From Escherichia coli phage AZ21: 64,000 nt of DNA. Of the stretch, positions 45,859-52,267 are shown in pieces. The position numbers and the translations under genes were made by a program. Every line of letters begins with the position of its first letter. Position 1 is the first letter of the stretch. The stretch lies in sequence record LC788708.1. One strand, given 5' to 3'. Under the pieces are notes generated by a model. That model had not been told where the DNA came from and did not search any database. It saw only the letters and a list, made by a program, of their open reading frames with translations.

Positions 45859-46125
45859 TTACAGGTAGTTAGATTGCTCTAGTTTAAATTTACAATCACC
45901 GTATTTAAGATCAAACTGACTGAGATCCCACCACCCAAACTTAGTACGGAGCTGTACTACTGGGAAGCGATCTCCCTTAATACGAACTTTTTGAACTTTG
46001 AGGCCATAATGTTCTTCTCCTGCACCTCCAAAAGATTTTACAAATCCCGTACAAAATGGTTTGGGAGCAGGTGCACAACCAGATAACATAACTGCGGCAA
46101 CTAGTGCAATCACAAACTTTTTCAT
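45859..46125 (-). CDS. llp: lipoprotein, Llp-like receptor-blocking candidate
   Basis: Signal peptide with lipobox LSGC; divergent from and adjacent to the receptor-binding protein gene; own early-type promoter. Confidence 0.6.
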   Translation of the reverse strand: MKKFVIALVAAVMLSGCAPAPKPFCTGFVKSFGGAGEEHYGLKVQKVRIKGDRFPVVQLRTKFGWWDLSQFDLKYGDCKFKLEQSNYL

Positions 46126-46210: not shown

Positions 46211-47968
46211 ATGGGTTTTTTCGCTGGTAAGTATAGCGATGGTAAGACCGTACTATCTTTAAATACTGAATCTGGTGGTGACATTAATCGTCACTATAGT
46301 CCAAATGCCAATAGTATTTTTCATAGTGATATGCCATTTGTCCTAGTTGATGGTACTTATGAGTCTGGGTTAGGTGATGCCGGTAATGGGTTTTTTGTAT
46401 GTCAGATGCCCTCTGACATAATAAATATTAAATCTAACGATCCTGGTAGAGTTATACTAACTGCTATTGAAATTAATGGTACTCACAGAGCTTTTCTTAA
46501 CGGTACTCAGAGTAAAGTAGGTCAAACTATAGCTGCCACTCAAGCAGATCCTTTTAGATCTTTTGCTAGTGTTTCCCAGACTAGTGGATTTGCATTTGGT
46601 AATAGCCTGGCATCTGGTACATATAACTATAATCCATCTATAGGGCATGAAGAATCTATTTCTAGAAATGGTACTGGTGGAACCACCCTACATAGTACGT
46701 ATCATGGTATAGTTAGGCCAGGTGCAGGAGCTCCAGTAGGGGTTACTGTTGCAGAAGCTTTTGCACAGTTGGGTTTTCCTACTAATAGTAGTACAGTACC
46801 TATAGATGGTAATAATCAATATTACTGGGACCCAGGATGGATGTCTCCTTTAGGATCAGCACACAGAGGGCACGATTGGTTTTATGTTTGTAACTCTAAC
46901 ATACGTGGGTATGGTGGGGTAAGACAAGGTCTTCCTGGTAGTGTAAATACTATGTATCATGATGGTGGCAACAGATTTGTTTGTAGGGGTTCTACAACTA
47001 ATTTAGCTAATCAATCTAGTGATTCTACAATACTACAAGATTGGTATAACATAACTCCTACTAAGGTTATTTGGTACGTCTTGAATTTAAGATATTCTGG
47101 CGGCAATATGAGTATCTCTGGTAATCCTTTTACTGGTTCAGATATTCTTATATCTCCTTCTAATTTCATAATTAAAGGGGTTAGTCTTCCCAATACTGGA
47201 TACAAGTTTATTAACCAGAACGCTTTCGGTAACTTAGGTTATAGACCAGATATGGAATATATTGGAAATAATGCAGCGTACACTGGGGCCTTCGGAGATA
47301 CTACTGCAAGGTGTGAACTTGTAGGTTCTAGTAATGGGGGTTTATGGTCTCCTGTGGACTATGGAGGGGCTAAGTCTCAAATTAGTATTTACAAATTCGG
47401 AGCTGGTAAGCAATGGTACGTAAACTCTAATGATAATACTATCGGTAATGAACACGGGGTTGTTTGGGGGCCTTCAGCAGTTCCACTACGACTTTTTAGC
47501 GGAAATGTTGGTAGTTCTTACATGGGGGATGATATTACTCCCAGCTATCCAGGAACTGGAGATAGATACGTTGGTTTATCAACTATTGGGCTAGGTATAC
47601 CGGGTGGCAATGCTACCGTAATTCTTACCACTGAAGTTATATCAGGTAATCTTAACTGCGCGGGTGTTCCCGCTAATACATGGAATAACGGTGTATTTCA
47701 GGTTCAAGGAAGAAGAGCATATAGTTATAGTAATGGGGATGCAATATTTCATCAGATTTTAACATTACCAGTAGGGTATTTAGTACCTTTTCATACTACA
47801 TCTGCTTTTAGATACACACCTAACAATGCCCTAAGTAGAAATAGTTTTATATACACTGCTAAAAATCTGGGGAATGGAAATGTAGAGCTAGGGGTAGTTA
47901 TGCACGTAAGTTTAGGTAGTGCAGTTTTCCTACCTAGATTAAGAGTAACAGTTCAACGCCTAACCTAA
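46211..47968 (+). CDS. receptor-binding tail protein (pb5/Oad-like)
   Basis: 585 aa, Gly/Asn/Ser/Thr/Tyr-rich, adjacent to divergent llp-like gene. Confidence 0.55.
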
Positions 47969-47978
47969 AGGAGGATAT

Positions 47979-48461
47979 ATGGCAAATGATGTATTAGTTC
48001 CCGATCTCATGTCTCCCGAAGGCATGGATGTTATTGAAGCCTATTTACAGTGCGGTAGTGATGTTCCTGCCGCCGCTCGTAGTCTTGGAATGTCCGAGAT
48101 TGCATTTCGTGATATAATGAATCGTGGGGAAGTTAAAAACTATCTCAACGATATCTTTATGGAAAGCGGCTTCCGTAATCGTGACCGCTTATTCGGAGTT
48201 CTTGATGAAGTTATCAAACGCAAGTTGGAAGAACTCGAAGAAACTGGCATGGGTTCTGACCAGGATATCATGGATATTCTCTGGAAGGCGCACAAGATGA
48301 AGATGGAAGAAATGAAAATGATGGTAGAACTGGAGAAAGTGAAGGCAGCAGCCCGTACTCCGGCTAACCAGACTAATATTCAGAATAATATTATTGCTGG
48401 AAGTGGTGACGAAAACTATATGAATCTTATTACCGCTCTAGCAGGAGGAGGTAAGAGATAA
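47979..48461 (+). CDS. terminase small subunit
   Basis: HTH-like [17 protein letters not shown]; directly upstream of and overlapping terminase large subunit. Confidence 0.5.
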
Positions 48462-49777
48462 TGAAAGTCTCTAGAGATTATATTAACACCACAGATGTTA
48501 TTGACTTTGGTATTGACAAACGATTTTTTCGTCTGCCAGTCTCTAGCATTCTAGCTCAAGAGGGGATTACACCTAACGCCCCTCAGGTTGCAATTATTAA
48601 TGCGTTAGAAGATCCTAGACACCGTTTCGTAACTGCGTGTGTATCACGTCGTGTAGGTAAGTCATTCATCGCATATACACTTGGGTTCCTAAAACTTCTG
48701 GAACCCAATGTGAAGGTGCTGGTAGTTGCACCTAACTACTCACTGGCTAACATAGGTTGGTCACAGATTCGTGGTCTTATTAAGAAGTATGGATTACAGA
48801 CTGAACGTGAGAACGCAAAAGATAAAGAGATTGAACTAGCGAATGGTTCTCTCTTTAAGCTGGCTTCTGCGGCGCAGGCTGACTCCGCGGTTGGTCGTTC
48901 ATATGACTTCATCATTTTTGACGAAGCAGCGATTTCCGACGTTGGTGGTGCAGCTTTCGATATTCAGTTACGTCCTACTCTAGATAAGCCAAACTCTAAA
49001 GCTCTGTTTATTTCCACACCTCGTGGTGGTAACTGGTTTAAAGAGTTCTATGAGAAAGGATTTAACGAAACTCTACCTAACTGGGTATCTATTCATGGTA
49101 CATATCGTGATAACCCACGTGCTGATCTGAACGATATCGAAGAAGCGCGTCGTACTGTTAGTAAAAACTACTTCCGTCAAGAATATGAGGCTGACTTCTC
49201 TGTATTCGAAGGTCAGATCTTTGACACCTTCAATGCTATCGAACATGTTAAAGACCTCAAAGGTATGCGCCACTTCTTTAAAGATGATGAGGCTTTCGAA
49301 ACATTACTTGGTATCGACGTTGGTTATCGTGACCCTACAGCAGTTCTTACTATCAAGTATCACTATGATACTGATGTTTATTACGTACTGGAAGAATATC
49401 AGCAAGCTGAAAAGACTACAGCTCAACACGCTGCTTATATCCAACACTGCATAGATCGTTATAATGTTGATCGTATATTTGTAGACTCCGCCGCTGCTCA
49501 GTTCCGTCAGGACTTAGCATATGAACATGAAATCGCTTCTGCTCCTGCTAAGAAATCTGTCCTAGATGGTCTGGCATGCCTACAAGCACTGTTCCAGCAA
49601 GGTAAGATCATCGTAGATGCTTCATGTACCTCATTGATCCACGCCCTAGCGAACTACAGGTGGGACTTCCAGGAGGGCGAAGAGAAATTATCACGTGAAA
49701 AACCACGTCATGATGCGAACTCTCACCTTTGTGACGCACTGCGTTATGGAATTTACTCAATTTCCCGTGGGAAATAA
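48461..49777 (+). CDS. terminase large subunit
   Basis: Walker A-like VSRRVGKS, Walker B DFIIFDEAA, C-terminal nuclease-like acidic motifs (GIDVGYRDPT, FVDSAAA); 438 aa. Confidence 0.85.
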   Translation: MKVSRDYINTTDVIDFGIDKRFFRLPVSSILAQEGITPNAPQVAIINALEDPRHRFVTACVSRRVGKSFIAYTLGFLKLLEPNVKVLVVAPNYSLANIGWSQIRGLIKKYGLQTERENAKDKEIELANGSLFKLASAAQADSAVGRSYDFIIFDEAAISDVGGAAFDIQLRPTLDKPNSKALFISTPRGGNWFKEFYEKGFNETLPNWVSIHGTYRDNPRADLNDIEEARRTVSKNYFRQEYEADFSVFEGQIFDTFNAIEHVKDLKGMRHFFKDDEAFETLLGIDVGYRDPTAVLTIKYHYDTDVYYVLEEYQQAEKTTAQHAAYIQHCIDRYNVDRIFVDSAAAQFRQDLAYEHEIASAPAKKSVLDGLACLQALFQQGKIIVDASCTSLIHALANYRWDFQEGEEKLSREKPRHDANSHLCDALRYGIYSISRGK

Positions 49778-49948
49778 ATAAGTATAGGATGGGATACTAC
49801 TCAGTTGGTATCCCATTCCTGCATTTTAAAATCCCCTTTACAAATTCGACATGATTATGTATACTATATTCATTGATCGGGAGAACTTCTCCCCTAATAG
49901 AACGTAAACAAGAAAAATTAGTGCTCTATACGGAGTGTAGGAGATTCT

Positions 49949-50623
49949 ATGGGTCGACAAAAGCTAACAATAAAAGATATAAATACTAGATTAGCTGATC
50001 GTGGAATCCAAATTGTCGGTGAATATGTAAACCAACGTACAAAAACAGTATTTAAGTGCCAAAGAGCACACGTTTGGGAAGCAACGCCACATTCTATACT
50101 CCATATTAAGAGGGGTTGCCCACACTGCGCACCTAATACTATATTGCTAGATGAAGTTAATAACAGGATATCCAGTATAGGGTATACACTGTTAAATAAC
50201 TATACTAATGCAAAAACAAAACTACATCTACGCTGTAATAATGGTCATGAATGCGATATTACCTTAGATGGGTTGACGCAAGGTAGAAGATGTCCTTATT
50301 GCTCCCTTAAATGGGATAATGGTGGATTTCTCTATATCATGTCCTCTTCTAGGGGTACTAAAGTAGGTATAGGTTTATACCCCGAGAAGCGATTGAACGA
50401 GGTTAAAAGAGAGTCTGGATTTTCAGATCTATACTTATTTACCACGTATCACTTACCTGATAGAGAAACTGCTCTAGATTTAGAAAAAGAAGTCCATAGA
50501 GAATATTATAATAAAAACTGTGGGTTTTCAAAATTTACAGGAAGCACAGAATTTTTTAATGTTGCTCCAGAGGATATAGTAGTCTTTCTAAGTAACTTTG
50601 GATTGGAGGAATATGGCCACTAA
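49949..50623 (+). CDS. zinc-ribbon plus T5orf172/GIY-YIG-like domain protein
   Basis: Two CxxC pairs then GFLYIMSSSRGTKVGIGLYPEKRLNE pattern. Confidence 0.5.
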   Translation: MGRQKLTIKDINTRLADRGIQIVGEYVNQRTKTVFKCQRAHVWEATPHSILHIKRGCPHCAPNTILLDEVNNRISSIGYTLLNNYTNAKTKLHLRCNNGHECDITLDGLTQGRRCPYCSLKWDNGGFLYIMSSSRGTKVGIGLYPEKRLNEVKRESGFSDLYLFTTYHLPDRETALDLEKEVHREYYNKNCGFSKFTGSTEFFNVAPEDIVVFLSNFGLEEYGH

Positions 50624-51050
50624 TACTAAGTACAAACGTGATGCCATTTCCATAATGAGGGATGGTATAAAATCTAGGTATAGTAAGGATGGTTGCTGTG
50701 CTATATGCGGTAGTGATGAAGCCCTAGAACTTCATCACTATCATACTATATCTCAACTAATTAAAAATTTTGCTAAAGAACTCCAGCTGGATTTCACTGA
50801 TGAGAATATCGTCCTTTCAAATAGGGAAGCATTCTATAAGAAATATGAGCATGAATTAGTTAGAGACGTAGTAACATTATGCCAGCATCATCACCAATTA
50901 TTACATAAGGTTTACACAAAAGAACCTCCTTTATTTTCTGCTAATAAGCAAAAAGTGTGGGTTCAAAAGCAGAAAGACAAATTACAGAATCCTCAAGAAA
51001 AGACACAAGTCAAGACTGAAACAAAATCAGGATTCGCAAGGTTCTTATAA
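50598..51050 (+). CDS. HNH endonuclease
   Basis: CCAICGSDEALELHHYH ... CQHHHQLLH. Confidence 0.6.
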   Translation: MDWRNMATNTKYKRDAISIMRDGIKSRYSKDGCCAICGSDEALELHHYHTISQLIKNFAKELQLDFTDENIVLSNREAFYKKYEHELVRDVVTLCQHHHQLLHKVYTKEPPLFSANKQKVWVQKQKDKLQNPQEKTQVKTETKSGFARFL

Positions 51051-52267
51051 TGGGTTTTAAAAGCTGGATTACTGAAAAGCTAAATCCGGGTCAACGTATT
51101 ATAAGAGACATGGAACCAGTTAGTCATCGCACTAACCGTAAGCCTTTTACCACTGGACAAGCCTACAGTAAAATTGAGATTCTCAATAGAACTGCTAATA
51201 TGGTTATAGATAGTGCGGCGGAGTGTTCTTATACTGTCGGAGATAAATATAATATTGTCACGTATGCCAATGGCATCAAGGCAAAGACTCTAGACACTCT
51301 CTTAAATGTACGACCTAATCCATTCATGGATATAAGCACATTCCGTAGACTTGTAGTCACTGACCTACTTTTTGAAGGTTGTGCATACATCTATTGGGAT
51401 GGCACAGCACTTTACCATGTCCCTGCTGCACTAATGCAAGTAGAGGCAGATGCCAATAAGTTTATCAAAAAATTTATATTTAATAACCAGATAGACTATC
51501 GCGTAGATGAGATTATCTTTATAAAGGATAACAGTTACGTGTGTGGCACAAATTCTCAAATTTCTGGACAATCTCGTGTTGCTACTGTTATTGATTCTCT
51601 TGAGAAGCGTTCTAAGATGCTTAACTTTAAAGAGAAGTTCCTAGATAACGGAACCGTGATTGGTCTTATTCTTGAGACGGATGAAATCCTGAACAAGAAA
51701 TTGCGTGAGCGTAAACAAGAAGAATTACAACTAGATTATAATCCTAGTACTGGTCAGTCCTCTGTCCTGATTCTAGATGGTGGTATGAAAGCTAAACCGT
51801 ACTCCCAAATATCCTCTTTTAAAGATCTAGACTTTAAGGAAGACATTGAAGGATTTAATAAATCTATCTGTCTAGCCTTTGGTGTTCCGCAAGTGCTACT
51901 TGATGGTGGTAATAATGCGAACATTAGACCAAATATCGAACTGTTCTATTATATGACTATCATCCCTATGCTGAACAAGCTGACTAGTTCTCTTACTTTC
52001 TTTTTTGGTTATAAGATTACTCCTAATACTAAGGAAGTAGCTGCATTAACACCAGATAAAGAATCTGAGGCTAAACATTTAACCTCATTGGTTAATAATG
52101 GTATTATAACTGGTAATGAAGCTCGCTTAGAGCTGAACCTTGAACCTTTAGATGATGAGCAGATGAATAAGATTCGTATTCCTGCTAACGTTGCTGGTTC
52201 TGCAACAGGTGTATCCGGTCAAGAAGGTGGTAGACCTCAAGGTTCCACCGAGGGAGATAAAGAATGA
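51050..52267 (+). CDS. portal protein
   Basis: 405 aa immediately downstream of terminase region and upstream of protease and capsid; assigned by synteny and size. Confidence 0.6.
   Translation: MGFKSWITEKLNPGQRIIRDMEPVSHRTNRKPFTTGQAYSKIEILNRTANMVIDSAAECSYTVGDKYNIVTYANGIKAKTLDTLLNVRPNPFMDISTFRRLVVTDLLFEGCAYIYWDGTALYHVPAALMQVEADANKFIKKFIFNNQIDYRVDEIIFIKDNSYVCGTNSQISGQSRVATVIDSLEKRSKMLNFKEKFLDNGTVIGLILETDEILNKKLRERKQEELQLDYNPSTGQSSVLILDGGMKAKPYSQISSFKDLDFKEDIEGFNKSICLAFGVPQVLLDGGNNANIRPNIELFYYMTIIPMLNKLTSSLTFFFGYKITPNTKEVAALTPDKESEAKHLTSLVNNGIITGNEARLELNLEPLDDEQMNKIRIPANVAGSATGVSGQEGGRPQGSTEGDKE

Follow-up and report, generated by a model that had tools for sequence, protein, structure and literature searches.

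Genes at the terminase-portal junction

The window analysed here is a stretch of 64,000 nucleotides (nt) from Escherichia coli phage AZ21 (LC788708.1), and the subject of this work is the pair of genes, termed gene A and gene B, which lies in it between the genes of the terminase large subunit (TerL) and the portal protein. An earlier note had proposed two open reading frames (ORFs) in this place; both were found on the plus strand, and the coordinates given there for gene A, 49949-50623, were exact. Gene A is very probably a free-standing homing endonuclease gene belonging to the T5orf172 branch of the GIY-YIG nucleases, with gene B being the conserved sciA nickase gene, which is not mobile. 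The 3.8 kb from TerL to portal are 100% identical to E. coli phage AZ23 (LC788707.1), therefore the comparisons reported for AZ23 are those of the window sequence at this locus. Over the same 3.8 kb many T5-like phages, from the genera Tequintavirus and Epseptimavirus, are 91-97% identical to the window, whose phage is itself T5-like. The two genes are the following:

49949..50623, plus strand: gene A, putative free-standing homing endonuclease gene of the T5orf172/GIY-YIG type, 224 amino acids (aa), with Pfam and PHROG matches
50613..51050, plus strand: gene B, sciA-type nicking endonuclease (divergent HNH-like), orthologue of T5.153/T5p149, 145 aa

Both are real genes and not chance ORFs, since the ratio of nonsynonymous to synonymous substitution rates (omega) is about 0.1 for each of them (for gene A in six orthologues) and gene B is present in 530 phage records. 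Both are already known or annotated in T5 relatives and the finding is real but ordinary; the new detail is a fine-scale map of the linked sciA tract and of the crossover in the window, within a known phenomenon.

Domain structure and selection of gene A

The description of gene A in the earlier note as a zinc-ribbon plus T5orf172/GIY-YIG-like protein was borne out by Pfam models that all scored above their curated cut-offs. These were the DUF4379 treble-clef zinc finger (residues 29-62, 33.3 bits, cut-off 24.5), the CapR zinc-finger domain (residues 78-119, 32.4 bits, cut-off 24.2), T5orf172 (PF10544; residues 126-211, 33.2 bits, cut-off 20) and MUG113, a model related to T5orf172 (32.2 bits, cut-off 22.3). 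In PHROG the gene matched phrog_681, 'endonuclease', at 7e-58. The architecture is thus that of two N-terminal zinc-finger modules, predicted to bind DNA, followed by a nuclease domain of the T5orf172 type at the C-terminus. A Klebsiella phage homologue with 53% identity matches the same Pfam models, and the motifs GGFLYIM, GTKVG, KRLxEVKR and GSTEFFN, compared among homologues only, are kept in gene A of the window, in T5 and in this homologue. For a T5orf172 nuclease a Glu is reported to be needed for activity, and the motif GSTEFF contains a conserved Glu. Neither sequence nor profile searches with gene A brought a meaningful match in the PDB. Nothing useful came from NCBIfam.

Gene A is the orthologue of T5.154/T5p150 (88.8% nt and 90% aa identity). 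It is under purifying selection, with an omega of about 0.1 for the whole gene and 0.05 for the nuclease domain, and it is intact in all six orthologues examined. The family is widespread (498 places in 362 phage records), and these places include other T5-like loci annotated as putative or Hef-like homing endonucleases. No paralogues of gene A or gene B were found within the 64-kb window, and the second member of the gene A family in AZ23 lies outside it. Several records already label gene A 'putative homing endonuclease', 'GIY-YIG nuclease family protein' or 'T5orf172 domain-containing protein'.

Insertion site, presence and decay of gene A

The features preceding gene A are the following:

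49787..49818, plus strand: terminator-like hairpin with a T-run just 3' of the TerL stop, 13-pair stem, from a consensus scan
49837..49865, plus strand: promoter-like element TTTACA-N17-TATACT, 10/12 consensus match
49874..49948, plus strand: leader of 75 nt with ribosome-binding site (AGGAG), accompanying gene A

In the alignment of eight phages the left end of the insertion falls at 49873/49874, where occupied and empty sites share their sequence as far as ...TATATTCAT (49873) and diverge from 49874. In the empty sites GAGGAG and the start of sciA come directly after ...TATATTCAT; in the occupied sites this place is taken by the 75-nt leader, gene A and a new sciA ribosome-binding site located within the end of gene A. 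The insertion point is constant, between the conserved promoter-like element and sciA. The element is present in both occupied and empty sites and is nearly invariant among 8 phages, and the T5 st0 record has a putative promoter annotated at the homologous place. The hairpin is likewise kept in both kinds of site, its function being a prediction. An RNA structure in the leader was considered and rejected, the fold being no better than that of shuffled sequences (z -0.75).

Comparison of the junction in related phages, which the earlier note had recommended, found gene A variably present and gene B constant. A megablast search with the TerL-portal spacer matched 441 records, only 73 of which cover at least 80% of it, and most match in two pieces spanning 551 bp. 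The search with gene A returned 86 phage records (73 full-length and 13 partial matches); the partial matches are decayed copies where examined, and 12 further records hold a deletion stub. The occupied junction measures 1272 bp in the window and AZ23, TrudiRoth, S124, EC100, NR01 and vB_Sen_I1, and 1271 bp in T5. The empty one measures 551 bp (DaisyDussoix, SSP1, ESCO40, phiST45, RN29, mar003J3 and TrudiGerster). DT571/2 and smaug carry internally deleted gene A pseudogenes in junctions of 954-955 bp, and in DT57C, Gostya9 and SA001 the match is only partial, as in DT571/2. A 699-bp junction, found in Kenya-K38 and 11 other records, is a stub which keeps only the start of the leader.

Within each of the two genera gene A is present at this one fixed site in some phages and missing in others. 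Phages whose TerL genes are near-identical differ in this respect: TrudiRoth has the gene, smaug retains a remnant, and the sites of phiST45 and mar003J3 are empty. The same is true where the portal genes are near-identical: EC100 and NR01 have gene A, and the sites of DaisyDussoix and SSP1 are empty. The 53% identical homologue of the Klebsiella phage vB_Kpn13-P1 stands in this slot too and likewise overlaps the following gene by 11 nt; the Sugarlandvirus K7PH164C4 is without it.

Several details of individual junctions may be added. In the K38-type junction (Kenya-K38 2501-2762; 12 records) the first ~45 nt of the gene A leader are kept, and then comes unrelated sequence of ~100 nt, which has a ribosome-binding site of its own and adjoins a third sciA 5' allele. 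In vB_Sen_I1 gene A is intact and its stop codon is shifted, giving 230 aa. The Klebsiella empty site (K7PH164C4 1952-2497 compared with vB_Kpn13-P1 1919-2617) still has the leader, the ribosome-binding site and six codons (MRGIFN) which are annotated as the start of the endonuclease gene, therefore its insertion or deletion point differs from that of the E. coli and Salmonella phages; the K7PH164C4 sciA is annotated with an N-terminal extension. In the T5 records (NC_005859 9774-10607; AY692264 1732-2565) the orthologue of gene A is given 834 nt, which is 159 nt longer at the 5' side than in the BASEL, EC100 and NR01 records. Since this extension spans the terminator-like hairpin and the putative promoter, it is probably over-extended. 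That T5 would hold a different occupant of the site (T5.154 is annotated with 277 aa) was rejected, it being the same gene with an over-extended start.

Gene B is the sciA gene of T5-like phages

The earlier note had placed gene B at 50598-51050. This is the longest ORF, which starts at TTG 50598, and the start is most likely ATG 50613, which is preceded by GGAGGA. This ATG is the annotated start in TrudiRoth, EC100 and NR01, and the N-terminus MATNTKYKRD is common to the relatives. The start of gene B overlaps the stop of gene A by 11 nt.

Gene B matched the PDB entries 9QGV_A and 9QGX_A, 'Nicking endonuclease', over residues 1-145 (E-value 1e-92). These entries differ from the wild-type motif LELHHYH by a change of the second His, to Q and to A, which suggests that they are catalytic-site mutants. 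The orthologue of phage DT571/2 (KM979355) is annotated as sciA, 'nicking site-specific endonuclease [T5] (T5p149, ORF142)', and the BASEL phages name it 'nicking endonuclease'. The DNA of T5 and BF23 has specific nicks in one strand (PMC10644984), and, as stated in passages of PMC3517423, sciA and sciB were mapped to the late region and viable nick-less mutants exist. By these annotations, the PDB name and the cited genetics, the product of gene B is predicted to be the enzyme which makes the site-specific single-strand nicks of T5 virion DNA. A literature search for a paper on 9QGV/9QGX or on the biochemistry of the T5 nickase found none.

Gene B was found in 530 phage records, among them T5-like phages of Klebsiella, Vibrio, Proteus and Providencia; in 435 records the match takes in at least 80% of the query. 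No relative without it was met among those sampled, the unannotated cases being supported by spacing (phiR2-01) or by a blast match (MET_P1-88). The order TerL - sciA - portal is conserved in T5-like phages, and sciA lies directly downstream of TerL in the empty-site phages. In a large protein collection the family is narrow, with 61 clusters, all of them with PF26848. Gene B is thus a conserved core gene of the T5-like phages and is not mobile. The suggestion that it was an invader has to be given up, because the gene is present throughout the T5-like phages and is the orthologue of the T5 sciA nicking endonuclease gene.

Two records concerning this gene are unusual. In MET_P1-88 (PV804860) the TerL, portal and capsid genes are fragmented, which looks like sequencing frameshifts, and sciA is unannotated though the sequence matches. 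A protein of 117 aa, 'PhoH family protein, partial [Enterococcus faecalis]', combines a PhoH domain with a part that is 95% identical to sciA (41% of the query); it probably derives from a chimeric or contaminant contig.

The designation of gene B as an HNH endonuclease was upheld in part. No Pfam model matched at an E-value of 0.01 or better, HNH_2 remaining below threshold (E-value 0.3, 11.4 bits with a cut-off of 21, residues 29-99). In PHROG the gene matched phrog_3497, of unknown function (5e-68), and, weakly, phrog_8048, 'HNH endonuclease' (2.3e-7). The motifs speak for the designation: C29, C32, H41, H42, C90, H93, H94 and H98 (CxxC...HH...CxxHH...H) are at least 90% conserved in 37 relatives, and Asn70 is invariant in 10 close relatives though not among the columns at least 90% conserved in the 37. 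The conserved Cys and His residues fit a zinc-bound HNH-like site. PDB searches with sciA profiles returned only 9QGV and 9QGX and no link to other solved HNH enzymes.

A sciA 5' tract linked to gene A and the crossover in the window

Two further features are defined by the comparison of carrier and empty phages:

50613..50888, plus strand: 5' part of sciA linked to gene A (codons 1 to ~91), putative co-converted or immunity tract
49874..50888, plus strand: block inherited together, consisting of the leader, gene A and the sciA 5' tract

When identities were determined per segment, all phages with gene A or its remnant had a sciA 91-97% identical to that of the window and all empty-site phages one only 76-83% identical. 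This contrast holds despite near-same TerL (phiST45 and mar003J3, 96-99%) or portal (DaisyDussoix and SSP1, 99.5%). Sliding windows limited the difference between carriers and empty-site phages to the first ~275 nt of sciA, a tract 91-100% identical among carriers of both genera and 64-76% identical to the empty-site alleles. In five carrier/empty pairs, from both genera, 75-89 dense mismatches end at 50885-50888, and just 0-6 differences occur in the 400 nt beyond. Over sciA codons 1-90 the synonymous divergence (dS) is saturated at 1.8-2.7, the nonsynonymous divergence (dN) is about 0.19 and omega about 0.1; over codons 91-145 dS is 0.03-0.08 in same-genus pairs.

The sciA 5' allele of the AZ23 type was found in 82 records, compared with 86 having gene A or a remnant, and the breakdown by organism is nearly the same. 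The remainder is plausibly a second linked allele, of the K38 type, since vB_Sen_I1 has gene A beside a K38-type sciA 5' allele; the K38-type phages look like phages in which gene A was deleted and the allele kept. The linked allele persists where gene A has decayed, and no empty-type sciA allele was seen beside gene A. Altogether there are at least four deeply diverged sciA 5' allele classes (AZ23/T5, vB_Sen_I1/K38, Tequintavirus empty and Epseptimavirus empty). The pattern is replicated in the Klebsiella phages, where the flanks of vB_Kpn13-P1 and K7PH164C4 are 93-100% identical and the first ~200 nt of their sciA-like genes are 64-75% identical.

The window itself contains a crossover at the edge of this block. 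Over 47979-52267 it is a mosaic, in which TerS and TerL share 95-100% identity with Epseptimavirus phages (TrudiRoth, smaug, phiST45, mar003J3) and, from ~50890, the 3' end of sciA and the portal gene are 98-100% identical to Tequintavirus phages (EC100, NR01, DaisyDussoix, SSP1). Compared with TrudiRoth, an Epseptimavirus, there are zero mismatches over 50613-50897, and compared with EC100 or NR01, both of Tequintavirus, there are zero mismatches over 50889-51267. Therefore the crossover lies within 10 nt of the block edge (50888-50898). In the sciA copy of the window two allele types have recombined, with the joint at about codon 92, and the crossover is an instance of nuclease genes standing at the boundaries of genetic exchange.

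Setting of the locus and flanking genes

The flanking genes of the junction are the following:

47979-48461: TerS, the terminase small subunit gene
48461..49777, plus strand: TerL gene, left flank; Pfam Terminase_6N and Terminase_6C, phrog_2
51050..52267, plus strand: portal protein gene, right flank; Pfam Phage_portal at 1e-49

The surrounding genes form the T5 head module, with TerS, TerL, portal, the pb10 decoration protein, the prohead protease and the major capsid protein. Upstream of TerS a 585-aa ORF (46211-47968, plus strand) occupies the slot held in T5 by the receptor-binding protein pb5 (oad). An 88-aa ORF (45859-46125, minus strand), whose start MKKFVIALVAAVMLSGC is a lipoprotein signal, lies in the slot held in T5 by the Llp/Cor-like exclusion lipoprotein. 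The records OR848653, OR847562 and OR846838 ('Listeria phage LM ...') and MG065692 ('Campylobacter phage C13') are 86-96% identical to this T5-like locus and are probably contaminant or mislabelled contigs.

Proposed mechanism and its alternatives

The proposal that homing endonucleases had invaded the packaging module is well supported for gene A, with its site of variable length (551 bp vs 1272 bp), its decay and its linked flank, and fails for gene B. Gene A has the promoter-like element of the sciA-portal gene group on its one side and the start codon of sciA on the other. In a mixed infection of a carrier and an empty phage, its protein would bind DNA through the two zinc-finger modules and would cut the empty allele within or close to the 5' part of sciA. 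As the break is repaired from the carrier genome, gene A would be copied, and with it the leader and ~275 nt from the start of sciA. The carrier would be protected from its own enzyme by its own sciA 5' sequence, which is ~29% different, mostly at synonymous sites. After spreading, gene A would decay or be deleted. The 5' two-thirds of gene B would thus be a flank dragged along by gene A, and gene B itself would lie outside the mobile element. The sequences themselves establish the domain content, the insertion boundaries, the series of present, absent and decayed states, the linkage to the sciA 5' allele, the purifying selection and the breakpoint of recombination. We infer the nuclease activity of gene A, the position of its cut and homing itself (super-Mendelian spread) from comparison of the sequences.

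Several points weigh against this mechanism. No cleavage or homing experiment on gene A was found and its target site is a candidate only. Ordinary recombination spreading one ancestral block could also yield the linkage of gene A and sciA, and a divergence of ~29% blocks crossovers inside the tract, therefore sharp borders would be obtained even without cutting by gene A. The single-sequence structure models of both proteins were unusable (pLDDT, the predicted local distance difference test score, 35.6 and 61.8), and the GIY-YIG and HNH folds are predicted from sequence. An omega of 0.1 shows that something profits from the protein, and besides gene A itself this could be the phage.

This last point leads to the alternative of gene A as a domesticated gene, for a nuclease or a regulator binding DNA, from which the phage benefits, and not a selfish, actively homing one. 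Its protein might, for instance, attack competing phages or satellites, or might repress the sciA-portal gene group, and the patchiness would come from the gene being gained and lost under selection. ICP1 and its satellites offer documented cases of domesticated T5orf172 nucleases and of CapR-type repressors, according to passages of PMC10448857. The strong purifying selection on gene A (omega ~0.1 overall, 0.05 in the nuclease domain), its position directly downstream of the promoter-like element and its translational linkage to sciA would agree with such a role. However, repeated decay in place (DT57C, DT571/2, Gostya9, smaug, SA001) and deletion in 12 K38-type records are not expected of a useful gene, tight linkage to a diverged, sharply bordered flank is what homing with co-conversion classically leaves behind, and the same slot is polymorphic in the distant clade of the Klebsiella phages. 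We therefore consider domestication unlikely.

It is quite unlikely that both genes, or gene B alone, are packaging accessory nucleases like HK97 gp74, without which the terminase would not cut concatemers. The earlier note had considered gene B as an HNH cofactor of the terminase. Its alignment to gp74 by hhalign had a probability of 0.1% with a profile of 10 sequences and 1.4% with one of 37, and consisted of nine columns covering LCxxHH only, so that no homology to gp74 was detectable. Most relatives are without gene A, hence it is not a required packaging factor; and since nick-less T5 mutants are reported viable in passages of PMC3517423, gene B is not an essential one. What stands of the idea is that gene B is always between TerL and portal, and that packaging HNH proteins typically adjoin the terminase genes (passages of PMC13595911, citing Kala et al. 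2014). In addition, the terminase small subunit carries in the T5 st0 record the label 'probable sciB protein, involved in formation of single-chain interruptions', so that the nickase may act together with the terminase.

That the block spreads through an advantageous linked sciA allele, for example one of other nicking specificity, with gene A as a passive hitch-hiker, is highly improbable: there are indeed at least four deeply diverged 5' allele classes, with a dN of ~0.19 in the catalytic half, but the omega of ~0.1 in the tract gives no sign of positive selection, the allele outlives the decay of gene A yet no empty-type allele is seen beside gene A, and the conserved insertion point across distant clades would be left unexplained.

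Returning to gene A as a homing endonuclease gene, a further consequence might be that homing at sciA created the at least four deep 5' allele classes by swapping the catalytic half of the nickase, and that this alters the nick-site specificity and the nick pattern of the genome. We give this only a small chance of being right; the evidence for a change of specificity is solely the deep allele classes, and omega gives no sign of positive selection.

As both genes are entered as 'hypothetical protein' in the AZ23 record, they can now be named, as a putative T5orf172 homing endonuclease gene and the sciA nicking endonuclease gene, though the value of this is mainly in housekeeping. The locus is a clean natural example of a homing endonuclease gene with a base-pair-sharp flank across two phage genera, and the crossover, lying as it does at the edge of the block, is an illustration of the published view of nuclease genes as markers of the boundaries of exchange. 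Neither sciA nor this junction is well suited to the phylogeny of T5-like phages. Carrier and empty alleles which differ only in ~275 nt are a ready substrate pair for mapping the cleavage site.

Comparison with known systems

HK97 gp74 resembles gene B in that both are small, of HNH type and located beside terminase genes, with an LCxxHH motif. The closest known system for gene B is the sciA of T5 (9QGV, 9QGX), with the same HH motif, the same TerL-portal position and few substitutions. The orthologues of gene A, T5.154/T5p150 in T5 and bas30_0003, 'putative homing endonuclease', in TrudiRoth of the BASEL collection, occupy the same slot and have the same length from the shared ATG. Their nt identity to gene A is 88.8% (T5) and 99.1% (TrudiRoth), and there is no substantive difference between them and gene A.

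The free-standing GIY-YIG homing endonucleases of the Seg group in T4 are like gene A in being intergenic beside an important gene, in their variable presence and in carrying flanking markers along. They differ in that gene A has its nuclease domain at the C-terminus and its zinc-finger modules at the N-terminus, the domain order of the Seg proteins being the opposite one, and in that gene A is known from its sequence alone.

Gene A also belongs with the T5orf172 genes of ICP1 and other phages, as they share the domain family and the CapR-type zinc fingers, although ICP1 is in a different phage family. Passages of Barth, Dunham and Seed 2023 (PMC10448857) describe T5orf172 as a GIY-YIG subfamily abundant in T5-like phages and often near the terminase genes. 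In these passages the T5-like phages are surveyed only in bulk and this locus is not described individually. According to the same passages, T5orf172 genes usually come with CapR-type zinc fingers and mark the boundaries of genetic exchange between phages.

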